From Fidelibacterota bacterium (GTDB lineage: Bacteria > Fidelibacterota > UBA8477 > JABMPR01): a stretch of DNA of 64,000 nucleotides. Position numbers and translations under genes: made by a program. This document shows positions 57,806-64,000 of this stretch, in pieces (position 1 is the first letter of the stretch; every line of letters begins with the position of its first letter). Under the pieces are notes generated by a model. The model did not search any database and was not told the origin of the DNA. It saw only the letters and a list, made by a program, of their open reading frames with translations. Location: the NCBI GenBank assembly GCA_021734325.1, contig JAIPJF010000005.1, positions 4,028-68,027 on the forward strand, given 5' to 3'.

Positions 57806-58336
57806 TTAATCCCGAAGACGTTTCAGCTCCAAATGGCAGCTCTTGCATAATAGATCTGATTTTTGATCCAGCTCCTCGACATAGGTGGTAGAAACCATTG
57901 TACATCCAGGCTGGAAACAGTGCTTTAGACCAAAAGTGTGACCGATTTCGTGAAGGATGGTCTTCAACAGTCTCTCTGCGTATATTTTTGGATCATCATT
58001 CAGACCGTAGCGACGATTATCCAGTCGATGAGCGGAGATCAGAGCCGCTGATCCACCGAGATAGGCCTGACCAAAGATATATCTAAGCACAGGTATAAAC
58101 AGATCCAATTCAGTCACCCCAACAATTTTGTCTTCACCACTTGCCATGGGCAACAATTCTTTGATGATCTCATTGGCATTATACTGTGATCGAACTGGAT
58201 CAAAAAATCGATTTAGATCCATATGATGAGAACTGAGACCACATTCTACACCATAGCGGTTGCTTATGGTAGAAAGCATCTGCTCCAAAATATCAAAATG
58301 GGCAAACTGAAGGGGTATGATCCTAATCAGGGACAT
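57806..58336 (-). CDS. amzA: Archaemetzincin-like zinc metallopeptidase (peptidase M54 family)
   Basis: 'HEIGHTFGLKHCFQPGCTMVSTTYVEELDQKSDLLCKSCH' matches the archaemetzincin signature HExxHxxGxxHC....CxM...(spacer)...CxxC. Confidence 0.8.
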   Translation of the reverse strand: MSLIRIIPLQFAHFDILEQMLSTISNRYGVECGLSSHHMDLNRFFDPVRSQYNANEIIKELLPMASGEDKIVGVTELDLFIPVLRYIFGQAYLGGSAALISAHRLDNRRYGLNDDPKIYAERLLKTILHEIGHTFGLKHCFQPGCTMVSTTYVEELDQKSDLLCKSCHLELKRLRD

Positions 58337-58356: not shown

Positions 58357-59700
58357 CTACTTGGGGCTCTCGATCTTATACTTTTTTATTTTGCTATAGA
58401 GTGTAACCCTATCCACCCCCAGTGCTTTGGCTGCGCGGGAAATATTCCAATCATATTTCTCGAGAATGCTCTGAATATGGTGGCTTTCCATTTCCTGGAT
58501 TGATTCCCAGGTCGGTTGACTTGTGTATTTATCAAGAGGAAGATCATTCAATCTGACAGTATCGCCGGTACCAATGACAATGGCTCGTTCTATGAGATTT
58601 TCCAATTCTCGAACATTCCCGGGAAATGGATAGTTCTCCAGCGCTTTGAGTGCTCTTTTTCCGATATATTTTGTTGGTTTATTCATCTGCTCGGCATACA
58701 AACGAATAAAATGTTCAGCCAGTATTTTTATATCTTCCTTACGTTCCCGAAGGGGTGGTATAGAGATGGCGAAAACATTCAATCTATAATAGAGGTCCTC
58801 TCTGAATTCACCTGCATCCACCATGGATTTTAGATCCCGATTTGTCGCGCAGATAACCCGAAAATCAGATTTATATTCACGGTTACCACCAACTCTGGTA
58901 AAGCGTTTGGTCTCCAGAACTCGTAGCAATTCGATCTGCATTTTCATAGAAATTGTCGAGATTTCATCGAGGAATAATGTAGCACCATCGGCCATTTCAA
59001 ATTTGCCTTTTCTGGCATATTGCGCACCAGTAAATGCACCCCGCTCATGACCAAACAATTCACTTTCCATGAGGGTCTCTGCAATGGCTCCGCAGTGTAC
59101 GGTGACCATGGGGAAAAATCTCCGTGGGGAATTCATGTGAATGGCTTTTGCAATAAGCTCTTTGCCAGTTCCGCTATCACCCCTGATGATCACAGTCGAA
59201 TCCGTATCCGCAACCTGGCGGACTTGCTCGAGGACCTTTAATATTGCCTCACTTCCACCAATTACAGCCTCGATATTCGTCAAACTTTTTATACGTTCCT
59301 GAAGGGAGAGATTCTCCTGGCTCAACTGGATGCTTTGACTGGCATTTCTGATCAGATGACTAACGGCGTCAGGATCAAAGGGCTTACAGACATAGTCATA
59401 TGCACCATCCTTGAGAGCTTCTACCGCCGAATCAACGGATGCAAAAGCGGTCATGATAATCACAACGATATCTTCATTAATTGACTTTATGCGACGATTC
59501 AACTCAAGTCCATCCATGCCAGGAAGTTTGATATCAACGAGAACGATGTGGAAGTTAAAGGCCTCCAATTTTTTAAGGGCGACCTTTGCATCTTCTGCAA
59601 CATCCACATTATAGCCATCTTCCAGGAACCAATTGGATAGAGAATCTCTTACTGAGAGCTCATCATCCACGATCAAAATGGAAAGATTGTTATCCATCAT
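58357..59700 (-). CDS. Sigma-54-dependent response regulator (NtrC family: REC, AAA+ and Fis-type HTH)
   Basis: Start at MMDNN/MDNN (59700 or 59697; ATGGATAA overlaps the kinase stop). REC domain 'ILIVDDE...VLVDIKLPGMDG'. Walker A 'GDSGTGKE'. The sigma-54 contact loop is 'GAFTGA', with 'ESELFGHERG'. C-terminal HTH 'NISRAAKALGVDRVTLYSKIKKY'. Confidence 0.9.
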   Translation of the reverse strand: MMDNNLSILIVDDELSVRDSLSNWFLEDGYNVDVAEDAKVALKKLEAFNFHIVLVDIKLPGMDGLELNRRIKSINEDIVVIIMTAFASVDSAVEALKDGAYDYVCKPFDPDAVSHLIRNASQSIQLSQENLSLQERIKSLTNIEAVIGGSEAILKVLEQVRQVADTDSTVIIRGDSGTGKELIAKAIHMNSPRRFFPMVTVHCGAIAETLMESELFGHERGAFTGAQYARKGKFEMADGATLFLDEISTISMKMQIELLRVLETKRFTRVGGNREYKSDFRVICATNRDLKSMVDAGEFREDLYYRLNVFAISIPPLRERKEDIKILAEHFIRLYAEQMNKPTKYIGKRALKALENYPFPGNVRELENLIERAIVIGTGDTVRLNDLPLDKYTSQPTWESIQEMESHHIQSILEKYDWNISRAAKALGVDRVTLYSKIKKYKIESPK

Positions 59701-61360
59701 CCACACTCCTATCAGCGAGTTCAAATATAAATTTAATTGAAGTTCCCTTTCCCAATTCCGAGTCTACAACAATTTTCGCCTTATGTTGTTCAAGGATTCC
59801 ATAGGTTACAGCCAGACCCAGACCTATCCCGGACATTTCTTTTTTCCGCGAGAAAAAGGGTTCAAATATATGCTCAATATCTTCGGTAGGGATACCGATA
59901 CCATTATCTTTGATATCGATGGTTATATGATTCATATCCTGATTATATGTGCGGTAAGTGACCTGACCCTCAGGGATATTATCCACAGCTTCTAGGGCAT
60001 TGGTCAGTACAGCCAGACAGGCTTGAATGATCTGATTGCCATTTGCCATTACCTGATCCCGGGATGCTGAAAAATCCGTTACGAATTTGACATTGGAGAT
60101 CTGAAAGCTGTGTTGGATAAGTTGTTCCGTCTCTTTGAGTACCGGATTTAATTTAATGAGAACAAACTTTTGATTCGGATCTCTGGAAAAATTTAGCAGC
60201 CCTTTTACAATATTTCCACAGCGAGTGGTTTCGGATTGGATCATGTTAAGATGCTTGAGTATCATCTCCTTTTTTTCATCTGTAAGGACAGGATTCTGGA
60301 GTAGACGGGAAACCAGTTTAGCATAAGTCAATACACCGGCCAGGGGATTGTTGATCTCGTGGGCGACGGAAGAAGAGAGTCGGCCTAGAGATGCCAATCT
60401 TTCTATTTGATAAATTTCATTCTGGGTTCTGGCAAAGTCCTCAGATTTTACCCTGACCTTATTCTCCAGTTCATTAGACCATATCTGCAGCTTCCGGTTG
60501 CTCTCGTTGATGGACTCAAGCATGGTATTCAGAGCAAGTCCCACATGATGGATATCCACAAGATCAGTTGGCTTGACATTTACTCGAACGGTCAAATTCC
60601 CGGCTGTCACCGCCCTGCTGGCCTTGACGATACGATTCAGGGGCAGATTGATATAGTACTGAATGAAAAGTACAATTGAAGTCATCAGGAGAATAAAGAC
60701 GATAGCAATGATGGCAAAATACTGGTAGAGAACACGATTGAGGGCCACATCCATTTCAGCCAGGGGAAGAATAATCTCAAGGAAGCCCAGAACCTCAGAA
60801 TCCTGACTTGTTTCATGGCAGCCGATTGATCGGCAGCCTGATGCAGAGAAAATAGGAGAAAGAACGATCATCTCCCTTCCGGTATTGTCCTCATCGACTT
60901 CATAGACGCAGGTCGCAGGCATACCCCACTGTTTGAGATCCACATCATTTTCTGAATGGCAATGTGAGCAGGGTAACAGGGGGTTTTTAAAATCAGGTTC
61001 CATGGTATGGTGGCGAATATCGCCATTACTATTGTAAATCCGAATTGCTTCAATCCCGGGAATTTCTTTTACTTTCCGGATCGCAATGGCTACTTCTTCA
61101 TGATTCTCAGTGATCATGCTGCTGCGAAGCGTTTGCTCAATGACCGTGGCCATGCGTTTACCACAGCGTGTCGTAACATTTTCCAGATAATTATTAGAAA
61201 TAGAAAAGATGATCCAGGCCAGAAAGGTGAAAAGCAGAATGAAGAGGGTCAAGAGCAGTATTACCATTCTTCCAGAGAGTGAGTTTGGCTTAAAAAAACT
61301 TTTCCAGGAAGTCTGGGAAATGAATTTATTCGATAATTCTGGCTCAGATCCTGAAATCAT
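59690..61360 (-). CDS. Sensor histidine kinase with a periplasmic domain bearing c-type haem-binding motifs, then HAMP, HisKA and HATPase_c
   Basis: TM1 is 'MVILLLTLFILLFTFLAWIIFSI', TM2 is 'YFAIIAIVFILLMTSIVLFIQYYI'. Between them lie 'CSHCH' (nt about 60956-60970) and 'CRSIGCH'. The H-box is 'SSSVAHEINNPL'. The ATPase region is 'DNGIGIPTEDIEHIFEPFFS..GIGLGLAVTYG'. Confidence 0.9.
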   Translation of the reverse strand: MISGSEPELSNKFISQTSWKSFFKPNSLSGRMVILLLTLFILLFTFLAWIIFSISNNYLENVTTRCGKRMATVIEQTLRSSMITENHEEVAIAIRKVKEIPGIEAIRIYNSNGDIRHHTMEPDFKNPLLPCSHCHSENDVDLKQWGMPATCVYEVDEDNTGREMIVLSPIFSASGCRSIGCHETSQDSEVLGFLEIILPLAEMDVALNRVLYQYFAIIAIVFILLMTSIVLFIQYYINLPLNRIVKASRAVTAGNLTVRVNVKPTDLVDIHHVGLALNTMLESINESNRKLQIWSNELENKVRVKSEDFARTQNEIYQIERLASLGRLSSSVAHEINNPLAGVLTYAKLVSRLLQNPVLTDEKKEMILKHLNMIQSETTRCGNIVKGLLNFSRDPNQKFVLIKLNPVLKETEQLIQHSFQISNVKFVTDFSASRDQVMANGNQIIQACLAVLTNALEAVDNIPEGQVTYRTYNQDMNHITIDIKDNGIGIPTEDIEHIFEPFFSRKKEMSGIGLGLAVTYGILEQHKAKIVVDSELGKGTSIKFIFELADRSVDDG

Positions 61361-61431
61361 AATCCCCTCCCAAAGACACTATTTTATTCTGTAAAGTATC
61401 TTGAATGTAAAATATGCAGATTACATGCCAA

Positions 61432-62136
61432 CTAGCAGATCAACGCTCTATTGTTACTGATAGATAGCAGATAAGTCATGAATTTATGCTTGTCGATTGG
61501 AGCGATTCGTGGGGAAGTATACTCTGAATCTGATCGCTTCGCTAATTGGATAAGTCTATATTTATCACAATCATCCCGGGTTTGCTGAAGATATTGTTCT
61601 CGGGTGAGACTTAACTTTTTCGCTTCGCTTGTCTCTTCAATTTCCAGCAGCCATGTTTCTTCTTCAGGTGTGAGATACAATTGAGCTCCATGGATATTTT
61701 CTTCTTGGAAATATGGGTTGGTGACGATGATCTTTCCAGAGAAGGGGGCTTTAAGATAGATAATCCCACCTTCGAGAACAATCCAACCGAAACATTGGTC
61801 TTGATGAAGATTGTTCCCGGGTCGAGTGATTATCACTTTGTGTGTGAAAGAGAGTAGCTGCCAGAGAATTGCATCGATACCTATTCTGATGCGACCAGCA
61901 GCTACTCTCTTGTACCAGAAATGACCTTCAAGATATTGTAGACCGGGGGAGAATTGGACAGATGAGATATCGGGACTTCGAACTGTGAGTGTCTGACTCG
62001 TGGAGCTTGAAGTGCTTGATCGATTTCCCCTGATCATTTCTTTATGGAAATCACAAAGATCGCAGTTCCGTTTTAGGGGGCAGAGTTGATAATCAACGAC
62101 TCCTGCTTCCATCCAAATGCACTTTTGTGATTCCAT
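61432..62136 (-). CDS. GcvH-like (lipoyl/biotinyl-fold) protein lacking the lipoyl lysine, with an N-terminal four-Cys motif
   Basis: The N-terminus 'CIWMEAGVVDYQLCPLKRNCDLCDFH' fits C-x12-C-x5-C-x2-C. The core 'GHFWYKRVAAGRIRIGIDAILWQLL...CFGWIVLEGGIIYLKAPFSGKIIVTNP...EETWLLEIE' aligns with GcvH (HxW..V.vGItD...ESVKA..d.yaPvsG.v..vN...e.WlfkI), but Gly replaces the lipoyl Lys. Confidence 0.6.
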   Translation of the reverse strand: MESQKCIWMEAGVVDYQLCPLKRNCDLCDFHKEMIRGNRSSTSSSTSQTLTVRSPDISSVQFSPGLQYLEGHFWYKRVAAGRIRIGIDAILWQLLSFTHKVIITRPGNNLHQDQCFGWIVLEGGIIYLKAPFSGKIIVTNPYFQEENIHGAQLYLTPEEETWLLEIEETSEAKKLSLTREQYLQQTRDDCDKYRLIQLAKRSDSEYTSPRIAPIDKHKFMTYLLSISNNRALIC

Positions 62137-62163
62137 GTCGATCTGCTTTTTGTTTTCGATTAT

Positions 62164-62859
62164 TTAGCTTTTGACAGCATCAATAAATTCGGTCTGGAAT
62201 TCTTCCCATATCTCTGAGGAAAGAGGTTCTAATACATGATCCCGAATCTCACCACCCTCCTGAAGTAGAACGGGCTCAGGTAGAGGACTGTATTTCCGCT
62301 CTGCGAATGCCAGGACATCACGAAGGCGAGTCTGCTCTTCCTGTACCCACTCACGAGCTTTCTCACCCAATAAAAGCATCTTCTTCTCAATATCCCAACG
62401 CAATGGTTTAAGATCGAAGAGCCAATTCTCGGTGAAATCATTATGGGTCCGTTTACTGAATGTTTTAAGTGCATGTCTGTTTGTACCACTTAAAACTCCA
62501 CTTACCGGAGAGTATATTTTTAATTTTTTATTATCACTCATTAGCGTCGCCAGGTGGTCACCGCGATTAACTGTCTCTCCATTCTGTTTCATGAGTTTCA
62601 GTGAGACTGGTCCGGTGAGCGCAGCCAGGAAGTCATCTATTCCTACCTGTACCTGACCAGCTGATCTCAGAAATGCCCAAGTATGAGTTTTATCAAACAG
62701 GATACCCTTCGGTAACCGTACATTTGACAGTGAGAAGAGAGGGCCTTCTACTTCTTTCAGGAAATTATAAAAGGGGATGAAGACTAAAAAGAAACTGATT
62801 ATGAGAATATATTCAATGCCCTTTGTGGCAAAAATATTGTGATAAATAAAACTATCCAT
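62164..62859 (-). CDS. Membrane-anchored GcvH-like protein lacking a correctly placed lipoyl lysine
   Basis: N-terminal TM helix 'IEYILIISFFLVFIPFYNFL'. The core 'THTWAFLRSAGQVQVGIDDFLAALTG...HLATLMSDNKKLKIYSPVSGVLSGTN...ENWLFDLKP' is GcvH-like. By eye, Asn occupies the position aligned to the lipoyl Lys. Confidence 0.6.
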   Translation of the reverse strand: MDSFIYHNIFATKGIEYILIISFFLVFIPFYNFLKEVEGPLFSLSNVRLPKGILFDKTHTWAFLRSAGQVQVGIDDFLAALTGPVSLKLMKQNGETVNRGDHLATLMSDNKKLKIYSPVSGVLSGTNRHALKTFSKRTHNDFTENWLFDLKPLRWDIEKKMLLLGEKAREWVQEEQTRLRDVLAFAERKYSPLPEPVLLQEGGEIRDHVLEPLSSEIWEEFQTEFIDAVKS

Positions 62860-62871
62860 TGTTTTAAATCC

Positions 62872-64000
62872 TTATGCTTTTGAAGTTTGTGCCATTGTTT
62901 CCATGGTTCGGAGAACTGGCATTCGATGTATAACCCAACGATAGATCCACACCTGGACAAACAGGATGGATATGGTAACAACAAACTCCATCCAAGAGGG
63001 GATATAGCGCGGCAAAACATCCCATCGATAGGCGATGACAGAAATATTCATACGGTTCAGGATGATACCCACCATGGTCATTAATGACGCTAATTTTATG
63101 ATACCAGGAGTTCCAATCCTCACACCATAAACGAAGAGCAGCATGGGTATGAATACAAATCCAAAAAGCTCCAGCAGATACCAGGCGCCCATTGGGGTCG
63201 CCAGCAAGCTGAGAGTGTGATTATGGACCATATCTATGATCTTCAGAAAAAAGTATGCAAACATGGAGATGGCACACACTTTGGACAAGCCCCGGATCAT
63301 GATGTTCTGTCGCTCTTCGGCGTGTTCATCCAACTGATAGGAAAAAACCCGCTGCAGGATACTTCCCTGAAAGATCACAACACTAAGTCCGGCAAATATG
63401 CTGGAAATAAAGAACAAAGTTGGGATGAATTCAGAATACCAGAGCGGGTGGATCTTCTCCTTGGCCATGAGGAACAAAGCGCCTAATCCTGACTGATGCA
63501 GGGTAGAGAGCGTGATTCCAAATACAACAGCACCGATGGTAAGCCGTTTCAGGTTTCGGCGAGCACGTTCTGATCCCAACCACTCAGCCACAGCCGGGGA
63601 AAACTCGATCATTTGGGCAACGATGTATAACATGAAATGCCAGGCCACCAGAAACAGGATGCTGCTGGTACCAAAAGAGTTGCCAATAATCGGATTGATA
63701 ATGTTCCAAGGTTTTCCCAGGTCCAGTATGAGGGCAAAGGCATAAAAGGTATAGGCCAAAAAACCATTTAAGACGGTCACTCTGACCAATGGTTTATATT
63801 TCTTTAGTCCCAGAATATATACCATAAAGGTTAGCACATAAGCGCCACCAGCGAAGGCAACCCCTGTAACAACATTAAACCCTTTCCATAATCCCCACGG
63901 AACACTTTGGGTAACATTGGAAACTGCCGAAAGACCATAAATAAAACGAAAAACGATAATCCCGACCGCCAGAAGTACGGTTGGAACAGAGATAATGTTA
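62872..64000 (-). CDS. NrfD/HybB-family polytopic membrane protein; the 5' end lies outside the window
   Basis: The frame stays open from 63837 to the window edge; I translated '...VPWGLWKGFNVVTGVAFAGGAY' upstream of the GTG used by the ORF track. 'LSTLHQSGLGALFLMAKEKIHPLWYS' parallels 'LPTMHQSSLGSLMIIAGEKLSPIWQT' of the HybB-like protein at 50837. Confidence 0.8.
   Translation of the reverse strand, partial: NIISVPTVLLAVGIIVFRFIYGLSAVSNVTQSVPWGLWKGFNVVTGVAFAGGAYVLTFMVYILGLKKYKPLVRVTVLNGFLAYTFYAFALILDLGKPWNIINPIIGNSFGTSSILFLVAWHFMLYIVAQMIEFSPAVAEWLGSERARRNLKRLTIGAVVFGITLSTLHQSGLGALFLMAKEKIHPLWYSEFIPTLFFISSIFAGLSVVIFQGSILQRVFSYQLDEHAEERQNIMIRGLSKVCAISMFAYFFLKIIDMVHNHTLSLLATPMGAWYLLELFGFVFIPMLLFVYGVRIGTPGIIKLASLMTMVGIILNRMNISVIAYRWDVLPRYIPSWMEFVVTISILFVQVWIYRWVIHRMPVLRTMETMAQTSKA

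Follow-up and report, generated by a model that had tools for sequence, protein, structure and literature searches.

An operon of Marinimicrobia and Bacteroidota links H-fold proteins without the lipoylation lysine to an Hmc/Hyb-type FeS/NrfD module, a two-component system and an archaemetzincin

What do proteins with the fold of the glycine cleavage H protein (GcvH), but without the lysine that bears lipoate, do beside an NrfD-type membrane subunit? The question is raised by one end of a 64,000-nucleotide stretch of a Fidelibacterota genome (the window; G000:C5:4028-68027 in the assembly, the lineage being called Marinimicrobia below), where two paralogues of this kind lie downstream of an NrfD gene cut by the window edge on a contig that runs on. 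We explored the locus, the adjoining DNA and its counterparts in other genomes, and lean towards reading these genes as the distal half of an eight-gene, sigma-54-driven and self-regulated operon for an inducible quinone electron-transfer module of the Hmc/Hyb type, with cofactor-less H-fold proteins as adaptor or structural subunits; our confidence in this reading is only a little better than even. Two results stand apart from it. The operon encodes three H-fold proteins, A, B and C, which all lack a lysine at the lipoylation position, and the cassette is not specific to the window organism, being conserved in Marinimicrobia and very widely in Bacteroidota.

The fold of the two paralogues in the window, B (62164..62859, minus strand, 231 amino acids (aa)) and C (61432..62136, minus strand, 234 aa), had been proposed by a model-made, sequence-only reading of the window, and it was borne out. 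Together with A, a 236-aa protein encoded beyond the window edge, they all exceed the Pfam GCV_H gathering cut-off of 22.2 bits (A 66, B 40.4 and C 23.5 bits, the last just above it), and all stay far below the 117-bit cut-off of NCBIfam GcvH (69.8, 43.6 and 26.4 bits, respectively). The AlphaFold2 (AF2) model of A, with a mean predicted local distance difference test (pLDDT) score of 92.4, superposes in Foldseek on the Escherichia coli and Thermus thermophilus H proteins with template modelling (TM) scores of 0.91-0.92 at 1.5-1.7 Å. For C (pLDDT 78.8), the model hits 22 solved structures of H proteins at E < 1e-3, the target TM score being about 0.8.

The column of the lipoyl lysine was placed by gap-free HMMER alignments with the T. 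thermophilus and E. coli H proteins. It holds an aspartate in A, N109 in B and the first glycine of an EGG motif in C, and a four-way alignment including the genome's own GcvH (IEAVKTVADVFMPVSG) agrees on these residues. The replacement by Asn in B and Gly in C is thus as the sequence-only reading had judged by eye. That reading had also allowed that two adjacent lysines of B, its K133-K134, might be the lipoylation site after all; these are K110 and K111 in the present numbering, and the alignment puts N109, not either of them, in the lysine column. C has Gly-Gly at the canonical column and the next position. In the model of A, the tip of the hairpin is formed by residues 108-109 and the second strand begins at K110.

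The same pattern holds in the wider family. A HMMER search with A retrieved 3,994 cluster representatives at E <= 1e-3, of which 170 at E <= 1e-30, most of them about 560 aa long. Among 148 aligned A-family representatives the canonical column is Gly in 139, and the column after it carries a near-invariant basic residue (Lys in 143, Arg in 5); Arg also occupies this position in 2 of 17 B orthologues. Arginine is not open to lipoylation, and since the basic residue is sometimes Arg, it is not an obligatory acylation site. The B and C families are themselves conserved (52 and 26 cluster representatives, respectively), which speaks against a chance feature, and by their source names the nearest protein relatives put the organism in Candidatus Marinimicrobia. 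The H-fold core motifs HxW, GIDDF, PVSG and PY..GW are kept, the E-x-V-K-A lipoylation context is gone, and the H fold is followed by a conserved extension of about 75 residues (W..E..RLRDF … LQ[DE]GGE … PE.WE[DE]FQ..F[IL]D), represented in B by the helical C-terminal segment LQEGGE...WEEFQ.EFID, for which no Pfam family was found. An ordinary gcvH (EAVKTVADV, 136.6 bits) lies elsewhere in the genome, on contig C24, next to a gene that, read from its translated frame only, looks like gcvP; the genome also encodes one gene of the BPL_LplA_LipB family. The H-fold proteins of the operon almost certainly carry no lipoate.

Two further proteins, retrieved by the search with A, show other settings of such domains. 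P0117 (1391 aa) has three lysine-less GcvH-like domains fused to FAD_binding_4, FAD-oxidase_C, a 4Fe-4S dicluster domain and two CCG domains (GlcD plus HdrD/GlpC-like), so lipoate-less H-fold domains also occur inside a soluble redox enzyme. In P0185 (413 aa), the N-terminal peptide and transmembrane helix typical of B precede two tandem GcvH-like domains. Public databases name proteins of this kind either 'glycine cleavage system H (lipoate-binding) protein' or 'hypothetical protein', and the missing lysine contradicts the first name.

The genetic context was read from the open reading frames of the window and of the neighbouring DNA (C5:64000-82000, taken as locus L001; window coordinate = L001 coordinate + 59972). 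Eight genes follow one another on the minus strand: GcvH-like A, iron-sulfur (FeS) protein, NrfD, GcvH-like B, Cys-rich GcvH-like C, two-haem histidine kinase, sigma-54 regulator and archaemetzincin. The partial NrfD gene (62872..64000, minus strand, 5'-truncated by the window edge) scores 44.9 bits on Pfam NrfD (PF03916), against a cut-off of 25.8; the whole gene encodes 416 aa and ends at L001 4150 (G000:C5:68149). Past the edge, on the same strand and tightly spaced or overlapping, follow the remainder of this gene, the gene of a 289-aa FeS protein and that of A. NrfD partners had been expected there. An FeS protein of the HybA/HmcB type was found together with the third GcvH-like protein, and the part of the expectation that concerned cytochrome or molybdopterin subunits failed; the survey of open reading frames and Pfam domains, including the DNA beyond the window, found no cytochrome, molybdopterin or hydrogenase subunit in the operon.

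On the other side, B and C are followed by a sensor histidine kinase (59690..61360, minus strand, 556 aa; Pfam HAMP, HisKA and HATPase), a sigma-54-dependent response regulator (58357..59724, minus strand, 455 aa; Pfam Response_reg, Sigma54_activat and HTH_8), whose start overlaps the kinase stop, and, as last gene, the archaemetzincin (57806..58336, minus strand, 176 aa; Pfam Peptidase_M54, 78.7 bits). The gene order upholds the proposed linkage of the GcvH-like genes to the NrfD subunit and a two-component system with haem motifs, and the kinase, the regulator and the archaemetzincin are part of the same unit. Just past the window (L001 6248-8003, plus strand) lie an S1/P1 nuclease gene and a patatin-like phospholipase (lipase) gene, divergent from the operon and also found as a pair beside the cassette of the Marinimicrobia relative L091.

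Conservation of this arrangement was assessed by scanning species-representative genomes with the alignment of the long forms of A, which matched 527 genomes; the best 80 loci were analysed. These come almost all from metagenome-assembled genomes of Bacteroidota (Bacteroidales, Prolixibacteraceae, Lentimicrobiaceae, Mariniphaga, Draconibacterium, Maribellus). With the eight operon proteins as tblastn queries, and within the reach of the contigs, about 65 of the 80 loci show the seven-gene order, i.e. the cassette without C. Two distant relatives of B likewise sit in the order long GcvH-like, FeS, NrfD, short GcvH-like, kinase, sigma-54 regulator, Peptidase_M54. The regulator occupies the same position in all cassettes, and the archaemetzincin comes after it in 55 of the loci that extend far enough. 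The short GcvH-like gene next to NrfD on its downstream side in the Bacteroidota loci is the orthologue of B. What differs in the Marinimicrobia type is the third paralogue, C, between B and the kinase, and the eight-gene order is kept in the other families that bear C. The co-occurrence survey called for by the sequence-only reading thus yields B with NrfD in about 65 of the 80 Bacteroidota loci, and C, in the genomes and matches covered here, only in Marinimicrobia.

Seven Bacteroidota loci (L009, L027, L034, L045, L059, L077 and L079) contain a minimal cassette restricted to A, with its PstS-like domain, transmembrane helix and GcvH-like domain, the kinase, the regulator and the archaemetzincin; the FeS, NrfD and short GcvH-like genes are missing and the sigma-54 promoter is retained. 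In five of these seven genomes there is no second family member anywhere. Gene presence in minimal versus full cassettes hence associates the A type with kinase, regulator and protease, and the B type with FeS/NrfD.

The FeS and NrfD proteins are predicted by family matches to form a HybA/HybB- or HmcB/HmcC-type module. The best NCBIfam matches are HmcB (329 bits, cut-off 420) followed by HybA (222 bits) for the FeS protein, and HmcC (359 bits, cut-off 550) followed by HybB (236 bits) for NrfD, in each case below the equivalog cut-offs. Sixteen of 16 cysteines, enough for four [4Fe-4S] clusters, are invariant in 69 FeS orthologues, of which 64 have an RRxFL twin-arginine translocation (Tat) motif and all 69 a C-terminal hydrophobic anchor. 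The FeS protein is accordingly predicted to be Tat-exported, periplasmic and tail-anchored, and to be functional as an electron wire. HmcB-type proteins normally dock a cytochrome c, as in the Hmc and Nhc complexes, and to our knowledge NrfD proteins are devoid of cofactors. Three NrfD genes are present in the genome, one of which is the HybB of a hyb operon located about 9 kb away in the same window. The low identity to the proteins of this operon (26% between NrfD and HybB, 34% between the FeS protein and HybA) indicates that the FeS/NrfD pair does not anchor that hydrogenase but forms a module of its own.

The H-fold domains would lie on the opposite side of the membrane. B has a single, strongly hydrophobic helix at about residues 14-34, in line with the tether noted earlier in one of the two window proteins, and C has none. 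In the 12 residues after the transmembrane helix, the mean number of Lys plus Arg is 3.5 in short forms and 3.6 in long forms, versus 0.4 and 1.1 in the 12 residues before it; more such residues follow than precede the helix in 19 of 19 short forms and 115 of 123 long forms (134/142 in total). A signal-peptide-like N-terminus occurs in 114 of the 123 long forms. This charge bias places the H-fold domains in the cytoplasm, and A and B are predicted to be single-pass proteins with these domains on the cytoplasmic face, across the membrane from the FeS protein.

Outside the membrane the two differ. The long forms of A have an N-terminal domain of about 330 residues related to PstS-type phosphate-binding proteins: a profile search matched PDB entries 4h1x, 4gd5, 4q8r and 1twy at E values of 3e-7 to 6e-6, and Pfam PBP_like_2 matched 6 of 15 long-form members. 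Bacteroidota A proteins have this periplasmic PstS-like domain, and those of Marinimicrobia have lost it. B has a conserved N-terminal peptide, NIFATKGIEY. In B (window 62790-62859) and its orthologues, this short periplasm-facing segment reads F.Y.NIF[AS]TKG[IV]EY before the helix and is kept from Marinimicrobia to Bacteroidota, which hints that it makes a specific contact on the outer side of the membrane.

Protein C is soluble. Its N-terminal motif C6-x12-C19-x5-C25-x2-C28 and Ser-rich linker (residues 38-49) are both as first described, and the four-Cys motif is conserved in all Marinimicrobia families examined. Pfam has no family in the N-terminal Cys region or the C-terminal tail of C. 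The protein was found in 27 of 301 sampled Marinimicrobia genomes, comprising 19 of 22 in the genus of the window organism plus members of four other families, and a word-limited sequence search with residues 1-42 returned matches only in Marinimicrobia. A further cysteine, C115, and the C-terminal one, C234, are either both present (window genome, L089, L091 and L097) or both absent (L096, L098 and L099), a co-occurrence over seven sequences only that suggests a functional thiol pair in one clade.

How is the operon switched on? The periplasmic domain of the kinase contains a CXXCH and a CX4CH haem motif, both of which are kept in 63 of 64 orthologous kinases. About 35 nucleotides before the start of A lies a -24/-12 element, TGGCACTTATCTTGAA, of the form TGGCAC-N5-TTGA, with TTGA at -12, and 95 bp upstream of this promoter a palindrome, TGTTGAGGTATTCAACA, of the TGTTGA-N5-TCAACA type. 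Among 76 sigma-54-type promoter-like sites scanned, this is the only promoter-palindrome pairing in the assembly, and the assembly scan found no perfect second regulon site in this genome. In Bacteroidota, 64 of 72 loci have the TGGCAC-N5-TTGA promoter ahead of their first gene, as located by a relaxed scan; a strict scan for TGGCAC-N5-TTGC matched 0 of 77 promoters, the -12 element of the regulon being TTGA. Palindromes with at most one mismatch occur about 93 and 182 bp upstream of the promoter in 46 of the 72 loci, versus 17 of 410 random control pieces. The conservation of promoter and palindromes across two phyla points to the co-encoded regulator as the driver of its own operon. The cassette thus probably regulates itself, with the palindromes as the predicted binding sites of the regulator. 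Scans for terminators and sigma-70 promoters gave chance-level results only. A second candidate sigma-54 promoter, TGGCATGTAATCTGC (window 61416-61430, between C and the kinase gene), was rejected: a pattern this loose should turn up some 2.3 times in L001 by chance, it has no counterpart upstream of the 64 orthologous kinases, and it was treated as chance.

A Marinimicrobia relative indicates what else such a regulon can contain. In L091 (4640-5330), three TGTTGA-N5-TCAACA palindromes lie between two divergent sigma-54 promoters, one of which leads to the cassette and the other (TGGCATTCAACTTGC) to genes for a tetrahaem (188 aa) and a dodecahaem (337 aa) cytochrome. The shared palindromes tie the regulon to periplasmic electron transfer. 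Such divergent cytochrome genes were seen upstream of the cassette in L091 and L092 only, and are absent from that position in the genome of the window. This genome has orthologues of both L091 cytochromes on another contig (G000:C34:21442-24010; 43-46% identity), the dodecahaem gene being preceded by the sigma-54-like site TGGCACTATATTTGA, with no palindrome of two or fewer mismatches nearby.

From these elements we infer haem binding, regulator binding, the path of the electrons and every subunit contact, and propose the following scheme. The kinase would read the periplasmic redox state via two c-type haems and activate the regulator, which would bind the palindromes and switch on the whole operon. 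The FeS/NrfD pair would then shuttle electrons between the menaquinone pool and periplasmic carriers, the candidates being multihaem cytochromes, co-regulated in a relative, and possibly the haem domain of the kinase itself. At the cytoplasmic face, the H-fold proteins may act as cofactor-less structural or adaptor subunits, B-type proteins presumably serving the FeS/NrfD pair and A-type proteins the two-component system and the protease. C would be a Marinimicrobia-specific addition whose four-Cys site may bind metal, and in this clade C115 and the C-terminal Cys might together serve as a thiol switch.

Several points weigh against this reading. Its main weakness is that, with a cofactor-less NrfD and no haem-b subunit in the operon, nothing explains what three cytoplasmic proteins add to a periplasmic redox module. 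The subunit contacts are putative, being drawn from gene presence and linkage. In the minimal cassettes, A, kinase, regulator and archaemetzincin work without FeS/NrfD, so the quinone module may be an accessory and not the point of the system. The near-invariant lysine beside the hairpin tip could be a modification site, AF2 confidence is poor for residues 1-45 of C, and other regulon members could be missing from an assembly that is 84% complete.

These weaknesses leave room for other explanations. The FeS/NrfD pair might be part of the sensor and not its output: by equilibrating the two kinase haems with the quinone pool, it would let the kinase track how oxidised or reduced the respiratory chain is, while on the cytoplasmic side the H-fold proteins relay the signal or act as a scaffold towards the kinase core and the archaemetzincin. 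The di-haem domain of the kinase is the only conserved periplasmic redox partner within the Marinimicrobia cassette, HmcB-type proteins normally dock a cytochrome c, the FeS/NrfD genes are, as far as gene order predicts, always co-transcribed with the kinase, and the A type stays with kinase, regulator and protease where FeS/NrfD is absent. The minimal cassettes nevertheless show that the haem kinase functions without FeS/NrfD, the regulon of L091 includes ordinary multihaem cytochromes, which fit an electron-transfer output better, and the contact itself is a postulate; we regard this explanation as unlikely. Another would keep the H-fold proteins as carriers, with lipoate or another acyl or prosthetic group borne one residue past the canonical site, on the Lys of a GK motif, as a swinging arm at the cytoplasmic face. 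The frequency of this lysine (143 of 148 representatives), its location directly after the hairpin tip, the intact core motifs and the BPL_LplA_LipB-family enzyme encoded in the genome are what one would expect of a carrier. However, Arg replaces the lysine in 5 of the 148 representatives and 2 of the 17 B orthologues, C has Gly-Gly there, the E-x-V-K-A context is lost, and neither a ligase nor lipoyl synthase is in the cassette. Moving the lysine of a lipoyl domain by one position moreover abolishes lipoylation, and carriers of this kind are improbable here.

Since the archaemetzincin and the A-type H-fold protein are the only non-regulatory genes kept in every form of the cassette, minimal ones included, the H-fold proteins could also be substrates or regulators of the protease, the conserved output of the two-component system then being the regulated cleavage of tethered domains and not electron transfer. 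Both proteins would be in the same compartment, A being cytoplasmic by topology and the archaemetzincin having no signal peptide. The argument is one of co-occurrence only. Neither a cleavage site nor a docking motif was identified, we know of no established archaemetzincin substrate, and we give this explanation very little weight. Beyond the electron-transfer module that we favor, the lipoate-less H fold might have been recruited as a membrane-tethered cytoplasmic signalling or adaptor domain that couples the quinone-linked FeS/NrfD module and the haem-c kinase to the archaemetzincin. In this Marinimicrobia clade, C might then use a metal-binding four-Cys site, together with C115 and the C-terminal Cys, for a thiol relay or switch reminiscent of DsrC. 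This is a tentative proposal of rather low probability, which, if true, would describe a new kind of respiratory-chain sensing device and give bacterial archaemetzincins their first physiological context.

The cassette is present in hundreds of sediment, groundwater and marine Bacteroidota and in Marinimicrobia, lineages that are important in the anaerobic cycling of carbon, metals and sulfur. It joins well-known electron-transfer parts with three kinds of partner to which no role has been assigned: H-fold domains free of lipoate, a tethered PstS-like receptor and an archaemetzincin. Solving it would show how these bacteria adjust the electron flow through their quinones to redox conditions beyond the cell. 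One of the oldest folds among carrier proteins would gain a function that needs no cofactor, and a protease family still without a substrate would gain candidate partners. In the meantime, the lipoate-binding label that is widespread for these genes calls for caution in genome annotation, since their sequences contradict it.

How, then, does the operon compare with known systems? Literature searches combining GcvH with NrfD, H protein with HmcB/C, and archaemetzincin with NrfD or with sigma-54 found no relevant paper, consistent with the earlier remark that the genes fit no described complex. Among the closest systems is the Hmc complex of Desulfovibrio, with the related Nhc: in NCBIfam the two subunits match HmcB (329 bits) and HmcC (359 bits) best, the two systems share a Tat-exported, presumably periplasmic tetra-cluster FeS protein and an NrfD-type quinone subunit, and multihaem cytochromes are co-regulated with the cassette in a Marinimicrobia relative. 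The operon differs in scoring under the Hmc equivalog cut-offs (420 and 550 bits), in having neither the HmcA cytochrome nor HmcE/HmcF (haem b plus HdrD-like), and in having, in their place, a two-component system of its own, an M54 protease and the three H-fold proteins. HybA/HybB of E. coli hydrogenase-2 are the second-best family matches (222 and 236 bits) and likewise include a tail-anchored FeS protein. The operon pair is paralogous to HybA/HybB of the hyb operon about 9 kb away (34% and 26% identity), the difference being that no [NiFe] hydrogenase subunits are adjacent and that the hyb operon has its own HybA/HybB.

With GcvH and with LbpA of the sulfur-oxidising Hdr-like (sHdr) system (PMC6067878), the operon proteins share the fold (TM scores of 0.8-0.92 to solved H proteins for the models of A and C) and the core motifs. 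They differ from them (PMC6067878) in lacking the lipoylation lysine, in being membrane-tethered or Cys-rich and in having the C-terminal extension of about 75 residues, and the locus has no gcvT/P, hdr-like, CCG-domain or lipoate-ligase genes. The analogy to sulfur oxidation drawn in the sequence-only reading is therefore unsupported, there being no lipoyl lysine and no hdr-like or lipoate-ligase gene in the locus. A parallel of another sort is offered by BccR-CbcBA of Geobacter sulfurreducens, where redox conditions act through a sigma-54 response regulator to induce the operon of a quinone oxidoreductase in the inner membrane (10.1101/2021.04.15.440034). Of its subunits, CbcB is a b-type cytochrome with two haems and CbcA a c-type cytochrome with seven, and NrfD, FeS and H-fold proteins are not described in that work (10.1101/2021.04.15.440034). 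The components are not homologous to those of the operon, and what the two systems have in common is an analogy of regulatory logic only.

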